Below, in pieces: positions 22,838 to 41,120 of a stretch of DNA of 64,000 bases. Every line of letters starts with the position of its first letter. Position 1 is the stretch's first letter. Origin of the DNA: Dictyostelium discoideum (Eukaryota). Below the pieces are notes generated by a model. The model ran no database searches and was not told where the DNA came from. It saw nothing but the letters and a program-made list of their open reading frames with translations. The stretch covers positions 1,856,001 through 1,920,000 of the forward strand of contig CM000153.2 of the NCBI GenBank assembly GCA_000004695.1, read 5' to 3'. The position numbers and the translations under genes were made by a program.

Positions 22838-23523
22838 TTATTTATAGAAAGTACTGAGTGAATTATTGTATTTTTTGAGATGTTTAGGAAGTTCTATTGC
22901 GTGGAGAGGTGAGTTCCATTGTCTGCTAAATTGTAATAGCTTTAGCGAGATTAGTGAGTCTAATTTATTTTGTTCTTCTGGCCGTTGCTTTGATTTGATT
23001 CTTAATGTTTTGTTTATAACCGCTTGTGTCCTGTCCCATGCAGCTCTTTGTGTTTTAATTAGTTCACGTATGACTTGTTGTCTGTGAATTATTATTTCTT
23101 TTTCATCGTGAATGAGTTTATTTCTTTTGTGCCAGATTTTTTCGAATATAATAGCTATTAAATTGGCGACTAGTGCAATTTGTAGATGGTTTAAAATCTT
23201 CACATTCCAGGTGTGAGTGGTGTGTCCACACTTAGTTAGGGTGTAGTTGAAGATTTCTTGTGTGTTTTTGATGTGGGCTTTGCAGTTGAAGAATATATGT
23301 TCTGAAGTCTCATCTTCCCCACACTGTTGGCATGGCATGTTGTATTTTTTTGGTAGTGCTTTCAGTGTGTATCTCCATAATAGATCTCTACCTTTCATGT
23401 TTATTATTTTTTTGATTTCTTTAAATGGAAGGTGTTTGCTATTAATTTTGGTCATTATTTCTTTTTGGCCAGGAGTTGGTATGAATTTGTTGTGTTCAGG
23501 AGATTGAGTTGTCATCATTTTTA
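22263..23523 (-). mobile_element. 5'-truncated tRNA-gene-targeted non-LTR retrotransposon fragment (TRE5-like), composite 3' region with two oligo(A) tracts
   Basis: On the minus strand, an ORF2 C-terminal fragment (23533..22838) is followed by a short 3' UTR and A(about 58) (+ strand T-run 22780..22837). After about 330 bp of unique sequence, a second A(45) (+ 22439..22483) and about 175 bp extend to the TSD. The insert is bounded by the 22-bp direct repeat. The 5' end lies about 20-42 bp upstream of tRNA-Ile, divergent from it. Confidence 0.55.
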
Positions 23524-23533
23524 TTAAAAACAA
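22838..23533 (-). CDS. Non-LTR retrotransposon ORF2 C-terminal fragment (231 aa) with Cys-His motif
   Basis: CQQCGEDETSEHIFFNC fits the C-x2-C-x7-H-x4-C motif found at the C-terminus of L1-clade ORF2 proteins. Basic, RT-thumb-like sequence lies upstream. The ORF starts abruptly about 33 bp from the tRNA with no RT or EN domains, which indicates truncation. Confidence 0.5.
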   Translation of the reverse strand: MFLIKMMTTQSPEHNKFIPTPGQKEIMTKINSKHLPFKEIKKIINMKGRDLLWRYTLKALPKKYNMPCQQCGEDETSEHIFFNCKAHIKNTQEIFNYTLTKCGHTTHTWNVKILNHLQIALVANLIAIIFEKIWHKRNKLIHDEKEIIIHRQQVIRELIKTQRAAWDRTQAVINKTLRIKSKQRPEEQNKLDSLISLKLLQFSRQWNSPLHAIELPKHLKKYNNSLSTFYK

Positions 23534-23565: not shown

Positions 23566-23638
23566 GCTCGATTAGCTCAGTCGGCAGAGCGTGGTGCTAA
23601 TAACGCCACGGTCGCAGGTTCGATCCCTGCATCGAGCA
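23566..23638 (+). tRNA. tRNA-Ile (anticodon AAU)
   Basis: GCTCGAT/ATCGAGC acceptor stem, D-arm TAGCTCAGTCGGCAGAGC, anticodon stem TGGTG/CGCCA with loop CTAATAA, B box GGTTCGATCCC, discriminator A, then a T5 Pol III terminator (23642-23646). Confidence 0.9.
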
Positions 23639-36951: not shown

Positions 36952-38210
36952 CTAGATATTTTTTTTACCTTTTTCATCAGACCACAATTCAAGTTCAACA
37001 TGTGAAGCATAAGGTGGCCATTCTTTCATGAGACCAAATAAATTAGTGAATGGACCAACTGAATCATCATGACCAGAGAAAACGATATATTTGACAGAGG
37101 AAGTACCATTAACAAAAGCTCTAATATTATCGACTACCTCCTCTAAGAAAGTAGACATACCAAGACGAGCAATCATTGGGAAAGAGAGTTGATATTGGTA
37201 TTGCCAATAGGCAGCTTCATAGACTTGAGTGACCATATCTTGAGTGACACCCTCTGGTAATGGGAAATCGTGACATTGAGTTGCAAAGAATAAATCCATT
37301 AATGAACTCCAACCTGGGAATACAGAGATACCCAATGTTTCCATAACATCCTCTTTTAATTGGGTGGTGTTGGTAATGAATTCCCCCCACTCTGGTGTGG
37401 TGGTAGTATTGGCGATCAAAACAGCCAACTCTGGGCAAAGAGTTGGATTTGGTGTCATATTTTCATAATAGTTATCCATTGTATTGATATTGATAATTGG
37501 AATACCTGAACCACTTGTAACGGTGGTTGGTGGGAATAAAGCAGTTAAATGACCTTGAACCGATTGAATGGTTCTTGGTACATCGGTTGAACGAACCCAA
37601 ATGGTTGATGCTGCATCCACTGATAATTCACTTGGTAATAATTCATATTTATCAACGTAGAGTTGACGTAAACTTTGACCTAATTGTAAATGTTGTTGGA
37701 ATCCAAGTGAGGTCAATTGACCGTCTGAACAATTACCTGGGAAATATTCTCTATTTGGCATATAAACTTTTCTAAATAATCTATCAACATCTGTTGCTGC
37801 TCCTGGTACATTATTTAAACTTGATACCATTAACCATCCTAAATTACAATCCCATGTATTCATTGTTGGTTTTAATGTACTATACAATGGTGTTCTATCA
37901 CCATGTCTTGTTAAAATTTGTACCATCTTTAATGTTAATCCATCTGTATTTAAACTTGGTGTCTAAATAAAAATTATTATTATTATTAATTTATAATTTT
38001 CCATTTTTTTTTTTTTTATTTTTATTTTTTTTTAATTTTAATTTCTAGATTTATTTTTATTTGAAATTTATGGAAAAATAAAAAAATAAAAAAATAAAAA
38101 AAGATATTTACTGGTTCTGGTGCTTGGCAATAAAATGGTTTTTGGGATAAAGAAACACCCAAAATTAGTGAAACTAAAAATAATGTTATTAATGCACTTT
38201 TTTTAATCAT
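36663..38210 (-). CDS. Histidine acid phosphatase, 416 aa, secreted/lysosomal type; exons 38112..38210, 36969..37962, 36663..36820
   Basis: Signal peptide MIKKSALITLFLVSLILGVSLS, RHGDRTP active-site motif (RHGxRxP), and the downstream SGHDDSV His-Asp motif. Phases 0 and 1 are consistent and total 417 codons. Introns contain T(48) and A(49). Confidence 0.8.
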
Positions 38211-38701
38211 TTTTAATCATTTAAAAAAAAAATTTTAAAAAAATAAAAAAGTATTTTAAAAACGATTTTGATGGAAAAAAAAATAAAAAAAAATAAAAAA
38301 ATAAAAAAAAAATTAAAATTAAAAAAAAAATTAAATTAAAAAATAAAAAAAAAATAAAAAATAAAAAAATTTGATTTTTTAAAAATAAAAAAAATAAAAA
38401 AATAAAAAAAAAAATAAAAAATTGCTGTGTTATTATTTTTTATTTTTTTATTATTATTGTTTGTGTGTAAGACAAATCATCTTTTTTATTTTATGTAATT
38501 TTTAATAATAATGAATATAATAGTTATTATTATAAATAATAAAAAGGTTTAAAGATATACTTGTGTGTGTGTTTATTTGCGTTTTTAAAAATTAGTTTTC
38601 TTCATTTTTCATTTTATCCTTTTTTAGAAATTTTGTTCCTTAACCCTGAAGAGGTTTTTTTTTTTTTTTTTTTTTTTTATTTATTTTTTATTTTATTTTA
38701 T

Positions 38702-38733
<32 letters not shown>

Positions 38734-39019
38734 CTGGAAAAGTATAAATTGTGGTTTTTATTTAAATTTTTTATTTTTTTTTATTTTTTTTTTTTCAAGT
38801 TAGAGTTTTATTCAAATACATAATTACAAATAATAAATACACACACACACACCCCACAAATAATATTCAGATTAATTCAATTAATAATTTTAAAGATTTT
38901 AAATATACAAATTTAAATAAAATAATAATATTAATAAAAATAATAAAAAATAATAATAATTAATAATTAATAATTAAATAAATTAATTAAAAATTGATAA
39001 ATTAAATAAATTTAAAAAA

Positions 39020-39769
39020 ATGATTAAAGTGGCAAGTAAAGATCCGATTGTATTCAAAAATAGAAAAGATGCTGGTAAACAATTATTAAATTTTATTAAA
39101 CAAGAAGTAAAAGGATTAAATAAAGAAAATGCAGTAGTGATTGCTCTACCAAGAGGTGGGGTACCAGTTGCCTTTGAAATTAGTAGTGCACTTGATTTAC
39201 CATTAGATTTATCAATTCCACGTAAAATTGGTGCTCAAAATAATCCAGAATATGCAATTGGTGCAGTATCTGAACATGGTGAAGCTTTCATCAATAATGA
39301 ATTGTTGTCATATTCTCATTCTTCAAGAGAATATGTAAAGAATGAAATTGAAAAACAAAGATTAGAATCTCAAAGAAGACAACAAATTTATAAAAAAAAT
39401 AGAAAACCAATTGATTATAAAGAGAAAACTGTTATAATTGTTGATGGTAATTATTATTATTTATTATTATTATTTATAATTTTACTATTCTTTTACTAAC
39501 CTTTTTTAAAAAAAGATGGTATGGCAACTGGAAGTACTGCAAAATCATCAATAAATTCTGTTTTACAAGCAAAACCAAAGAAAATTATCTTAGCACTCCC
39601 AACTGCACCAATTGATTCTTTAGAAGAAATTAAAAATAGTGGAAAAGTTGATGAAATTTTATGTGTTTCAATACCAAGAATCTTTAATGCAGTAGGTTGT
39701 TTCTATGAAACCTTTGACCAAACTGATGATAGTGAAGTAATAGAATTATTAGAAAAATCATTAAATTAG
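39020..39769 (+). CDS. Bacterial-type phosphoribosyltransferase (COG1926-like, PRTase type I fold), 226 aa; exons 39020..39446 and 39516..39769
   Basis: VVIALPRGGVPVAFEISSALDLPLDLSIPRKIG..PEYAIGAV. The splice recreates the PRPP-binding motif TVIIVD|DGMATGSTAK. The C-terminal DEILCVSIPRIFNAVGCFYETFDQTDDSEVIELL matches ..FxAVGxWYxDFxQxSDEEV of bacterial predicted PRTases. Confidence 0.8.
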
Positions 39770-40090
39770 AGTGATAGGATTAATGTATACATTGATTTTT
39801 CCTATTTTTTTTTTTTTTTTTAAAAAAAAAAAACAAACCAAACAAGTTTATTTTCATTTTTTTTTTTTTAAAAAAAAAGCAATATTAAGTTAAATGATAA
39901 ACAAAGAAATATTTTTCCAATTCATTAATCCAATAAAATTTTAAATTATAAACATTTTTTTTATTCATATTTTTGTTCTTATTTTTATTTTTTTTTTTTT
40001 TTTTTTTATTAAAAAATATATAATCACCAATTAATCGAGTTGGTAATTTTTTAAAATTTATATTGTTATATTGTTATTTTTATAGGATTT

Positions 40091-40153
<63 letters not shown>

Positions 40154-40159
40154 TAATTA

Positions 40160-41120
40160 TTAAAGACTACTTGAAATTGAAAGACTTTGATATTCAGCAC
40201 TCAATAAACCATCTCTTGCATAGTGAGGATTTATTCTATTCTTTGGTAAAGAACACTCTTTTGAAAATAATGAATTAAAATTCATGAAATAAACAAAAAC
40301 ACCAATTGATAAACCAATAACAGATCCTGCTAAAATCTATTTATTATTTATTATAATTAATATTGGGTGAGAAAAAAAAAAAATGGAAAATAAAAAAAAA
40401 AAAATGGAAAATAAAAAAAAAAAAAGGTGGGAAATAAAAAAAAAAAATAAAAAAAAAAATTTTAATATGAAAAATACTTACATCAGAAAAATCATGATGA
40501 TAATCAACAGTTCTTGAAACAGCAACTAAAGCAGATATCATAAATGGACAAAGACAAACTAATGCTTTTAAAATATTACCACCATCTTTTAGGAAAACTT
40601 TAGTTTTACCACAAAGATAGAATGAGAGAAAAGTCATACCACAAAATGAAACTGAAGAATGACCAGATGGGAAAGATACACGACCCTCTCTAATGACAGC
40701 TTCGATACCAGTTGCAACACGTGCACCGTAATCTGGACGGTAACGACCAGCACTAACTTTTAAAATGTCAGTGAATAGCATTGTGATTGTGAATGCTTGA
40801 AATAAACCTAATGCTGCGTGATGGAAGTCATGTGAATTTCTATTCTTTATATAATATCCAATGAATACTACCATTGGTAATCCAAGTGCAATTAACATTA
40901 GTAACCAAACTGGCACAATGTCTGGTAATAATGGATATTGAACTAATTGAAAAGTATTGGTTGATATATTTGATTCTGGTTCATAACGTTTGAATGGTGG
41001 AATTACAAAATTAAATAAAACACTCTCAATTACAAATATACCTAAACAAAGAAACCAATCAATTAAATGCTGTTTGGTGAACCATGTAGTTTTACCATAA
41101 AATGAAACTCTGTGAATCAT
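40160..41120 (-). CDS. PAP2-family lipid phosphate phosphatase, about 270 aa; exons 40478..41120 and 40160..40329
   Basis: The three PAP2 motifs KVSAGRYRPDY (KxxxxxxRP), FPSGHSS (PSGH), SRTVDYHHDFSD (SRxxxxxHxxxD). A phase 1 splice (donor GTATTTTT, acceptor ttttag) gives ..HHDFSDV|TGSVIGLSIGVFVYF, matching the LPP C-terminal helix. Six predicted TM segments. Confidence 0.75.

Follow-up and report, generated by a model that had tools for sequence, protein, structure and literature searches.

An intron-bearing phosphoribosyltransferase gene of prokaryotic type in Dictyostelium discoideum: a candidate for ancient horizontal transfer

In Dictyostelium discoideum, a gene interrupted by a spliceosomal intron encodes a protein that resembles phosphoribosyltransferases (PRTases) found mainly in prokaryotes, which raises the question of what this protein is, how its gene came to reside in a social amoeba and what it may do there. 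The combined answer developed below, which we consider quite probable, is that the protein is a PRTase of the TT1426-like kind, that its gene was obtained through one ancient transfer from a prokaryote, gained an intron and was kept by purifying selection, and that it would act on PRPP by the mechanism predicted from its conserved residues.

Gene model and family membership

The spliced open reading frame amounts to 681 nt (i.e. 226 codons and a stop; Table 1), and the resulting 226-aa product is identical to DDB_G0284365 of D. discoideum AX4 (XP_638586.1, UniProt Q54PR8). A sequence-only reading of this locus had claimed that a canonical GTAATT..AAAAAG intron splits the PRPP-binding motif, which is borne out by splicing the sequence: the intron interrupts, in phase 1, the codon for the second Asp of the PRPP loop (VIIVD|DGMATGST), and without splicing the reading frame hits a stop at 39499.

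Table 1. Positions of the gene and its neighbours in the window (the whole 64-kb stretch of DNA that was analysed)
Feature	Position	Strand	Description
Exon 1	39020..39446	+	427 nt; ATG at 39020; codons 1-142 and first base of codon 143; encodes the N-terminal half, i.e. PPi loop LPRGG (R45), PRKIG (K69), family-specific insert (beta-hairpin and long helix) and start of the PRPP loop (VIIVD)
Spliceosomal intron	39447..39515	+	69 nt; phase 1; GTAATT...AAAAAG; GC 10%
Branch-point-like motif TACTAAC	39494..39500	+	~15 nt 5' of the 3' AG; read from the sequence
Exon 2	39516..39769	+	254 nt including the TAG stop at 39767-39769; starts with the remainder of codon 143; encodes DGMATGST (completing the PRPP loop), the final strands of the core and FNAVGCFYETFDQTDDSEV, a C-terminal motif specific to the family
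Upstream neighbour, histidine acid phosphatase family (His_Phos_2), main exon	36952..37926	-	
Downstream neighbour, PAP2 lipid-phosphate-phosphatase family, main exon	40344..41120	-	

The protein matches PF00156 with 57.9 bits (cut-off 26.3, E 9.7e-16), and its residues 12-220 align with residues 3-202 of Thermus thermophilus TT1426 (1wd5) at an E-value of 1.7e-34 and 34% identity. Hundreds of prokaryotic 'predicted phosphoribosyltransferases' show 42-50% identity over 94-96% of the query length which, together with the 1wd5 alignment, confirms the full-length collinearity with a bacterial family of predicted PRTases that had been noticed earlier. The structure of TT1426, reportedly described by Kukimoto-Niino et al. 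in 2005 (Protein Sci 14:823), is what we take to be the structural representative of COG1926, a name for which a text search of the literature gave no match.

The AF2 model of the protein (pLDDT 95.8) consists of alternating strand and helix elements, among which are a hairpin (residues 68-83) and a long helix (residues 103-125). Its best PDB match in Foldseek is 1wd5 (E 3e-20, TM 0.75-0.80), the next structural matches being UPRT, HGPRT and PyrR at only ~1e-6; 324 PDB chains were matched at E<=1e-3, and the best 50 of these 324 are almost all of PRTase fold.

When the protein is aligned with its prokaryotic relatives (40 sequences), P44-R45-G46-G47 of the PPi loop LPRGG (P44-G47) is invariant, as are K69, the residues D142-D143-G144-x-T147-G148-x-T150 and A146 of the PRPP loop (residues 137-150) and, outside these motifs, I70, E77, A82, G203, Y206, F209 and D214; R68, G71, R120, Y124 and R125 are nearly so. 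R45 and K69 align with Arg32 and Lys56 of TT1426, for which a role in pyrophosphate binding has been proposed (PMC2427199).

The PRPP loop, the PPi loop and the core fold are those of the type I PRTase superfamily, and the full-length collinearity, the family-specific insert and the C-terminal hood motif AVGxFYxxFxQxxDxEV (also given as AVGxFYxxFxQTxDxEV) are those of the TT1426-like family, which is why the protein is, as judged from sequence and model, a stand-alone type I PRTase of this family. Among the NCBIfam models none specific to a family scored above its cut-off, and all 19 NCBIfam matches (APRT, HGPRT, UPRT, OPRT, PyrR, PRPP synthetase and ComF) were far below theirs, the best equivalog or subfamily score being 31.5 bits against a cut-off of 113, while the matches to named PRTases span the PRPP-loop region only.

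Predicted activity

From the conserved residues and the fold, it seems that Mg-PRPP would be bound through the PRPP loop VIIVDDGMATGST together with LPRGG and K69 of the PPi-binding site, after which a nitrogenous acceptor, kept in place by the C-terminal hood and the inserted hairpin and helix, would receive the 5-phosphoribosyl group to give a nucleotide-like compound, with the release of PPi. The fusion of one family member (P0270) to a PRPP-synthetase module is consistent with the use of PRPP by the family. Canonical type I PRTases (APRT, HGPRT, UPRT, OPRT, PyrR and PRPP synthetase) share the core fold and the PRPP and PPi loops with the Dictyostelium protein, but their structures match its model with a TM of 0.35-0.52 and 10-19% identity. 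They differ from it in hood and insert, and a different acceptor is therefore to be expected. The literature found by search reports no enzymatic activity for any member of the TT1426-like family.

It could also be that a protein of the same horizontal origin is not catalytic, but instead a regulator that binds PRPP or nucleotides (like PyrR) or an effector that processes nucleotides, in the manner of PRTase-domain proteins found in bacterial conflict systems. Regulatory uses of the PRTase fold are known, and the structural neighbours include both PyrR and a Neisseria protein with bound ppGpp; in addition, the family is without a known substrate, and one of its members carries a fused PIN nuclease domain. 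PADLOC returned partial matches to the retron type III-A PRTase and to ShosT (residues ~98-195, E 1e-7 to 3e-3), and Pfam PRTase-CE scored 24.1 bits, which is just below its 27-bit cut-off. Against this, all PRPP- and PPi-binding and catalytic residues of type I PRTases are invariant, the defence-family matches are weak (E 1e-7 to 1e-3) and cover the PRPP-loop region only, and the usual neighbours of the prokaryotic genes are hydrolases and stress proteins rather than toxin-antitoxin or retron parts. Moreover, the Dictyostelium gene stands alone, and its dN/dS of 0.096 versus D. citrinum indicates strong purifying selection. A non-catalytic role is therefore unlikely, and an anti-phage PRTase effector of the retron type III-A, ShosT or PRTase-CE kind was rejected, given the partial and weak nature of the matches and a prokaryotic neighbourhood of hydrolases and stress genes.

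Distribution and origin

A search space of 5.8 billion proteins, including EukProt, UniRef and the NCBI eukaryotes, was queried with the D. discoideum protein (2,956 matches) and with a dictyostelid profile, and the best 120 matches of each search were inspected. With either query, the only eukaryote-labelled proteins among these 120 are from dictyostelids, the remainder being prokaryotic or metagenomic; with the profile, the dictyostelids score 355-381 bits and are followed by prokaryotic matches at <=312 bits. The third-ranked non-dictyostelid match (P0283, 304 bits) is located in a compact prokaryotic operon, and the two ranking above it (P0281 and P0282) are on contigs too short to classify. 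One further sequence, P0020, is found in EukProt only.

The family as a whole comprises 12,861, 7,599 and 1,236 50%-identity clusters at E<=1e-3, 1e-10 and 1e-30, respectively, and at least 599 stretches in GTDB carry homologues, spread over many bacterial and archaeal phyla. Named close relatives belong to the Buchanan-, Harrison-, Moran- and Uhrbacteria (Patescibacteria) and to the Waddliaceae (Chlamydiae), and archaeal members to the Bathyarchaeia, Thermoplasmata, Micrarchaeota and Pelearchaeum. Homologues on 273 plasmid records, mostly megaplasmids or chromids, have ~40% identity and are uninformative about the donor, while no relative turned up in a scan of IMG/VR, which leaves a giant-virus or phage vector unsupported. 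The sequence-only reading, which knew the family essentially from bacteria, regarded the gene as a candidate for horizontal transfer. The family is indeed overwhelmingly prokaryotic (archaea also being included), and the wholly prokaryotic or metagenomic nature of the non-dictyostelid matches among the best 120 supports the candidacy.

Orthologues are present in D. citrinum, D. firmibasis, D. purpureum, P. violaceum, T. lacteum, H. album and A. subglobosum, i.e. in every dictyostelid group sampled and in independent assemblies of at least nine dictyostelid taxa; for Cavenderia fasciculata (group 1), none occurs under its NCBI name among the matches listed. At the codon and in the phase seen in D. 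discoideum, an intron also interrupts the genes of D. purpureum (72 nt), T. lacteum (77 nt), P. violaceum (65 nt), D. citrinum (86 nt) and A. subglobosum, species that span groups 2, 3 and 4 plus P. violaceum; the H. album gene lacks it. In D. citrinum, TTTTACTAACC is retained although the rest of the intron has diverged, and an RNA-derived contig of T. lacteum corresponds exactly to exon 1 joined to exon 2, with the intron removed.

Ser117 occurs in 9 of the 9 dictyostelid sequences, compared to 1.5% of 343 prokaryotic ones. In neighbour-joining (NJ) trees of the full set (352 taxa) and of a thinned set (236 taxa), in which dictyostelids were the sole eukaryotic sequences included, the dictyostelids are monophyletic with a bootstrap of only 45-47% and adjoin Patescibacteria-like rather than archaeal sequences, again with weak support; the enclosing prokaryotic splits have a bootstrap of ~0, and neither tree identifies a donor. 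The shared intron position and phase, Ser117 and the monophyly in the NJ trees argue for a single ancient acquisition, and separate transfers into different dictyostelid lineages were rejected because the position and phase of the intron are common to them. Most likely, then, the gene entered the dictyostelid stem lineage once, from a prokaryote, before the Dictyostelia radiated. The transfer is ancient, in that it is older than the last ancestor shared by the sampled Dictyostelia and is not specific to D. discoideum, and an intron conserved within the most conserved motif provides a clean marker that both acquisition and intron gain predate the radiation. Distribution, and not a resolved tree, is what points to the putative donor and, in a strict sense, also to the direction of the transfer.

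Vertical inheritance would require that the last eukaryotic common ancestor (with archaea or the mitochondrion as the source) or the early Amoebozoa already had the gene and that nearly all other eukaryotes lost it, the bacterial look of the gene being an effect of sampling. The archaeal members of the family fit with such a history, as does a gene that is as old as the Dictyostelia themselves; the resolution of the NJ trees is too poor to exclude a deep branch, and more divergent eukaryotic members may lie beyond the best 120 matches. It is nevertheless rather improbable, since no other eukaryote-labelled protein is among those 120 in spite of the eukaryotic content of the database, and both trees place the dictyostelid clade next to Patescibacteria-like sequences. 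Furthermore, the identity between dictyostelids and their closest prokaryotic relatives (51-58%) is about that between dictyostelid groups (51-65%), which is unexpected for a split as old as eukaryogenesis.

Bacterial contamination, mis-assembly or a mis-annotated frame, conceivable in view of the growth of Dictyostelium on bacteria and the frequency with which bacterial-type genes in eukaryotic assemblies are contaminants, has next to no probability and is refuted by an AT-rich intron with canonical splice sites that the reading frame needs, a host-like GC3 of 9.7% (the flanks having 12-15% GC), eukaryotic flanking genes (His_Phos_2 and PAP2) that are syntenic in D. purpureum and D. citrinum (i.e. 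in three species), the spread over independent assemblies and the spliced RNA contig. The same synteny, base composition and conserved, spliced intron bear out the earlier view of an integrated, intron-bearing nuclear gene. Together with the low dN/dS, they make DDB_G0284365, as far as can be judged from sequence data, a functional, long-resident nuclear gene of expressed type. A transfer into the dictyostelid stem would thus have been followed by the gain of a spliceosomal intron within the PRPP-loop codons, by adoption of the base composition of the host and by retention under purifying selection in every major group of dictyostelids.

Prokaryotic context and comparison with known systems

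In prokaryotes, the most common neighbour of the family is an alpha/beta hydrolase similar to dienelactone hydrolase (DLH), encoded at at least 10 of ~75 loci and fused to the PRTase in P0183, P0212, P0214 and P0234, and other recurrent neighbours are DUF2267, erythromycin esterase, HSP20, CBS, S30AE and CSD. No hydrolase partner adjoins any dictyostelid locus examined, and none is encoded in the window. The adjacency and fusion to DLH and the stress- or dormancy-related neighbours point to a putative stress-linked role in the salvage or modification of small molecules or nucleotides, rather than in core purine or pyrimidine salvage. A more specific version, in which the gene was gained by the Dictyostelia alone from a Patescibacteria- or Chlamydiae-like symbiont or prey and makes a novel phosphoribosylated metabolite of stress or dormancy (spore or cyst), is suggested by the association of the bacterial relatives with DLH, HSP20, HPF and the DosR regulon, but it is speculative and we hold it to be doubtful.

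If that were true, the enzyme would rank with the products of iptA, dgcA and chlA among the bacterial enzymes that dictyostelids have recruited into their small-molecule biology, and a genetically tractable eukaryote would become available in which to deorphanise a prokaryotic enzyme family of very large size; otherwise, the gene is one more entry in the long list of transfers from prokaryotes to amoebae, a sound and fairly ordinary case. In either event, the prokaryotic family (more than 7,500 50%-identity clusters at E<=1e-10) has yielded a crystal structure but is without a known substrate, and a conserved, constrained, single-copy orthologue in a genetically tractable eukaryote provides a practical route to its function. 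The co-opted bacterial genes of social amoebae include enzymes for the synthesis of developmental signals, so that further well-supported cases are candidates for lineage-specific biochemistry.

Text searches of the literature for DDB_G0284365, Q54PR8 and the locus tags of the orthologues gave no match, the gene is absent from the published transfer lists found by literature search, and a search combining Dictyostelium, horizontal gene transfer and phosphoribosyltransferase returned unrelated papers only. The Dictyostelium genome paper of 2005 listed 18 transfer candidates, as described in PMC3383452, and reportedly the screen demanded a bacteria-specific Pfam domain; if so, DDB_G0284365 would have escaped it, because PF00156 is universal. 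Established transfers from prokaryotes into the Dictyostelia include iptA, dgcA, chlA and dokA (Glockner et al. 2016, PMC4931340), and a prokaryote-like dCTP deaminase/ThyX is also on record (PMC10733785). DDB_G0284365 resembles these transfers in that its closest homologues are prokaryotic and that no homologue from unicellular Amoebozoa is among the best matches; the pattern by which Glockner et al. recognised such genes, i.e. prokaryotic best non-dictyostelid matches without other eukaryotes, is also what was found here among the best 120. Unlike the transferred enzymes of signal synthesis, it has no assigned biological role.

A second point of reference is Rv0571c of Mycobacterium tuberculosis, a 'phosphoribosyl transferase' of the DosR/DevR dormancy regulon (PMC3177182). 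Its link with dormancy resembles the stress and dormancy neighbours of the prokaryotic family members. Its N-terminal part is presumably a PRTase of the TT1426-like kind and its C-terminal part an alpha/beta hydrolase, which would be the architecture of the PRTase-DLH fusions mentioned above, whereas the Dictyostelium protein has neither a hydrolase domain nor a hydrolase neighbour. The closest parallel with a known structure is TT1426 itself, with which the Dictyostelium protein has in common the Arg and Lys of the PPi loop, the PRPP loop, the inserted region and the C-terminal hood motif, and from which it differs in being encoded by a eukaryotic, intron-bearing gene and in having an 11-residue N-terminal extension; among prokaryotes, there are relatives closer to it than the Thermus protein, with ~50% identity.

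Distribution of homologues and phylogeny

The phosphoribosyltransferase (PRTase) gene DDB_G0284365 is a solid candidate for ancient horizontal transfer. When 5.8 billion proteins were searched with the D. discoideum protein, the best 120 matches included a D. citrinum cluster (94% identity; also holding D. discoideum, D. cf. discoideum and D. firmibasis), D. purpureum (66%), Acytostelium subglobosum (52%), Heterostelium album (51%), Tieghemostelium lacteum (50%), Polysphondylium violaceum (48%) and P0020, a protein found in EukProt only ('gene10267-12594_t', 47%), below which stood solely prokaryotic and metagenomic proteins (42-50%; those named being Candidatus Buchanan-, Moran- and Uhrbacteria, Omnitrophica and Bathyarchaeia). 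The outcome was no different with a profile built from seven dictyostelid sequences: dictyostelids reached 355-381 bits, and the next matches, metagenomic or prokaryotic (Buchananbacteria, Harrisonbacteria and Waddliaceae among those named), 312 bits or less. No further eukaryote-labelled protein occurred among the best 120 of either search, in line with the sequence-only reading, which broadly eukaryotic top matches would have refuted; Cavenderia fasciculata (group 1) was likewise not found there under its NCBI name.

The family itself is large: an exhaustive search of representatives for PRTase relatives returned 12,861 clusters at E ≤ 1e-3, 7,599 at E ≤ 1e-10 and 1,236 at E ≤ 1e-30, and a GTDB scan confirmed at least 599 relatives in many bacterial and several archaeal phyla. 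Described earlier as essentially bacterial, the family includes archaeal members as well. No relative was found on IMG/VR viral contigs.

In neighbour-joining (NJ) trees (Kimura-corrected distances, 208 columns; 352 sequences, and a thinned set of 236), the dictyostelid sequences including P0020 formed one clade both times. The bootstrap of this clade was only 45-47% and the splits enclosing it were without support, so that neither tree singles out a donor lineage; resolution is limited by the shortness of the PRTase and the fast evolution of the group 4 sequences. The group 4 clade reached 100%, and P0020 clustered with A. subglobosum, H. album and T. lacteum (groups 2/3) at 78-84%, from which it is probably another dictyostelid. 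Nearest to the dictyostelid clade were Patescibacteria-like metagenome proteins, with Chlamydiae (Waddliaceae, Parachlamydiaceae) and others further out.

Against the alternative of vertical descent from a split at the origin of eukaryotes stand the identities: across groups the dictyostelid PRTases are 51-65% identical to each other and 51-58% to their best prokaryotic match, ranges that fit a transfer shortly before the dictyostelid radiation better. A preprint on Acanthamoeba castellanii strain Namur and a Rickettsiales endosymbiont mentions 'homology' to Mycobacterium tuberculosis Rv0571c (bioRxiv 10.1101/2023.09.22.558946), which, if it denotes a true PRTase of the family of Thermus thermophilus TT1426, bears on the claimed restriction of the family to Dictyostelia among eukaryotes; Acanthamoeba proteins were absent from the best 120 matches.

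Gene structure, splicing and residence in the host genome

The intron is of phase 1 and splits the second Asp codon of VIIVD/DGMATGST (the slash marking the intron). The 226-aa spliced product is identical at every residue to D. discoideum AX4 DDB_G0284365 (XP_638586.1, UniProt Q54PR8), and the two-exon model proposed from sequence is therefore the annotated one, in D. discoideum nuclear DNA. A His_Phos_2 gene lies directly upstream and a PAP2 gene directly downstream, an order kept in D. purpureum and D. citrinum, while the rest of the window holds ordinary eukaryotic genes (DCN1-like cullin-binding protein, exportin-5, P450, phospholipase B, a macro/CRAL-TRIO protein and an MFS transporter). 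Window GC is 17-32% throughout, which is typical of Dictyostelium. The repeats around the gene are typical Dictyostelium intergenic low-complexity sequence. Elsewhere in the window, an ORF abuts a tRNA gene, and Dictyostelium retroelements are known to land at tRNA genes.

Features of the PRTase gene, its surroundings and its relatives (window positions unless a contig is named)
Feature	Position	Strand	Details
ORF pieces	39020-39499 and 39521-39769	+	reading-frame scan
Exons	39020-39446 and 39516-39769	+	427 nt + 254 nt, 681-nt CDS after splicing
Intron	39447-39515	+	69 nt, GT..AG, GTAATT...AAAAAG, 10% GC
Branch-point-like motif	39494-39500	+	TACTAAC, within the intron
T-rich/poly-T tracts	38640-38790		very long, upstream of the gene
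(ATT)n microsatellite	40090-40150		perfect, ~60 nt, downstream of the gene
ORF	22838-23533	-	231 aa, directly upstream of the tRNA gene, no Pfam match
tRNA-Ile(AAT) gene	23566-23638	+	
A. subglobosum gene	L006:6001-6726		VD/DG intron; second intron after PRKIG
A. subglobosum genomic frame	L006:5800-6900		longer than deposited protein
H. album gene	L002:6001-6648		intronless
T. lacteum stretch missing from RNA contig	L003:5769-5822		53 nt, upstream of the CDS
PRTase pair and hydrolase, metagenome contig	L088:1774-3713		two diverged tandem paralogues, then a DLH-like hydrolase

An intron of the same position and phase is present in D. citrinum (86 nt), D. purpureum (72 nt), T. lacteum (77 nt) and P. 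violaceum (65 nt). The difference within group 2 (A. subglobosum versus H. album) looks as if one lineage had lost an intron and its relative had gained (or kept) one. In the established dictyostelid phylogeny, the root separates A. subglobosum (group 2) from groups 3/4; with the root so placed, gene and intron both date back to the last ancestor common to the sampled Dictyostelia, and the loss in H. album came later. The A. subglobosum protein on deposit (203 aa, 'partial') is incomplete: the genomic frame adds an N-terminus MKFNDR... and a C-terminal ...SDRDLYPQPCK before the stop.

Splicing at this position was recovered in RNA of an orthologue: in the Logan assembly of run ERR3252990, the T. 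lacteum CDS equals exactly exon 1 plus exon 2, the 77-nt intron being absent, which is direct evidence for transcription of this orthologue and for its splicing at VD/DG. Compared with the genome, this contig shows further gaps of intron size, one upstream of the CDS (Table) and one of 78 nt in the convergent DnaJ/TPR neighbour; the former suggests a 5'-UTR intron, or overlapping transcripts assembled together.

Ser117 is found in all nine dictyostelid sequences versus 1.5% of 343 prokaryotic ones, comparison of D. discoideum with D. citrinum gives a dN/dS of 0.096 (dS 0.34, dN 0.032), and GC3 is 9.7% with flanks of 12-15% GC, all of which support a functional, resident gene. That separate dictyostelid lineages acquired the gene independently is excluded by the common intron position and phase across groups together with Ser117. 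Bacterial contamination, already discounted in the sequence-only reading on account of the intron, is excluded by the same features, the spliced T. lacteum RNA, dN/dS and the host-like GC3. What is left is most likely one old acquisition that predates the ancestor shared by the sampled Dictyostelia.

Protein family and prokaryotic context

PF00156 (general type I PRTase) is the sole Pfam domain (57.9 bits, cut-off 26.3), while the NCBIfam models for named PRTases (PRPP synthetase, OPRT-like, PyrR, UPRT, HGPRT, APRT, ComF) all score far under cut-off and cover the PRPP-loop region only. The only strong solved-structure match is TT1426 (1wd5; E 1.7e-34, residues 12-220 versus 3-202), which was also the best PDB match (E 3e-20, TM 0.75/0.80) of an AlphaFold model from a 40-sequence alignment (pLDDT 95.8, pTM 0.91); UPRT, HGPRT and PyrR followed at E ~1e-6, TM 0.35-0.52 and 10-19% identity. 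In an alignment to 39 relatives, 33 of them prokaryotic and 6 dictyostelid, the D. discoideum protein has an invariant pyrophosphate (PPi) loop (P44-R45-G46-G47) and K69, PRPP loop (D142-D143-G144-x-T147-G148-x-T150) and C-terminal G203, Y206, F209 and D214, so that membership of the bacterial 'predicted phosphoribosyltransferase' family extends, as claimed earlier, over the full length from the PRPP loop to the FNAVGCFYETFDQTDDSEV tail. Two of the invariant residues, R45 and K69, correspond to Arg32 and Lys56 of TT1426, which the authors of that structure are reported to have proposed as pyrophosphate ligands (citing paper, PMC2427199). The protein has a type I PRTase fold with intact PRPP and PPi loops and a family-specific hood and insert, under strong purifying selection, and would catalyse Mg-PRPP-dependent transfer of phosphoribose to a nitrogenous acceptor.

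Among 140 immediate neighbour genes scanned in ~75 GTDB loci, a dienelactone-hydrolase-like (DLH-like) alpha/beta hydrolase was commonest (DLH 10, Hydrolase_4 8, Abhydrolase_11 7 and Abhydrolase_1 6, counts that overlap, as a single hydrolase can match several models), followed by DUF2267 (4), erythromycin esterase (3), and HSP20, CBS, S30AE (ribosome hibernation factor) and the cold-shock domain CSD (2 each). Four family proteins are PRTase-DLH fusions. A hydrolase domain is probably also carried by Rv0571c, a putative TT1426-like family member. Annotated as a phosphoribosyl transferase, it belongs to the DosR dormancy regulon of M. tuberculosis (PMC3177182). Near the dictyostelid PRTase genes, which stand alone, no hydrolase partner was found.

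The first non-dictyostelid protein whose contig is long enough to judge is P0283, ranked third (304 bits; the two above it are on contigs of ~1 kb), and its gene is part of a compact prokaryotic operon (baeRF - PRTase - PRTase - DLH-like hydrolase - DUF72 - carbohydrate kinase - archease). Among the matches listed, L088 is the metagenome contig that comes nearest to the dictyostelid proteins; it has a baeRF (bacterial/archaeal eRF1-like) gene upstream of its PRTase pair, which is followed with overlapping stop/start by a DLH-like hydrolase in what looks like a three-gene PRTase-PRTase-DLH module. Single-protein fusions to a PRPP-synthetase module, a YceG-like domain and a PIN nuclease domain (P0270, P0157 and P0137 in the representative library) could be genuine Rosetta-stone links, or else gene calls that were merged; the first, provided that it is no gene-calling artefact, fits PRPP use.

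Comparison with known transfers

Matches to the PRTases of anti-phage defence effectors are weak and partial. Transfer from prokaryotes to Dictyostelium is well established: the 2005 genome paper listed 18 candidates, chosen, according to PMC3383452, for Pfam domains specific to bacteria, and iptA, dgcA, chlA and dokA were validated later (PMC4931340). On that description, the PRTase gene would escape the 2005 screen because its sole Pfam domain is universal. Its product has an annotation already, as a hypothetical PRTase-domain protein, and no mention of the gene was found in the literature open to text search. Set against the transfer criteria of PMC4931340, it has prokaryotic best matches (among the best 120), is present in all sampled relatives, and has a transcribed orthologue in T. 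lacteum, as seen in the spliced RNA contig.
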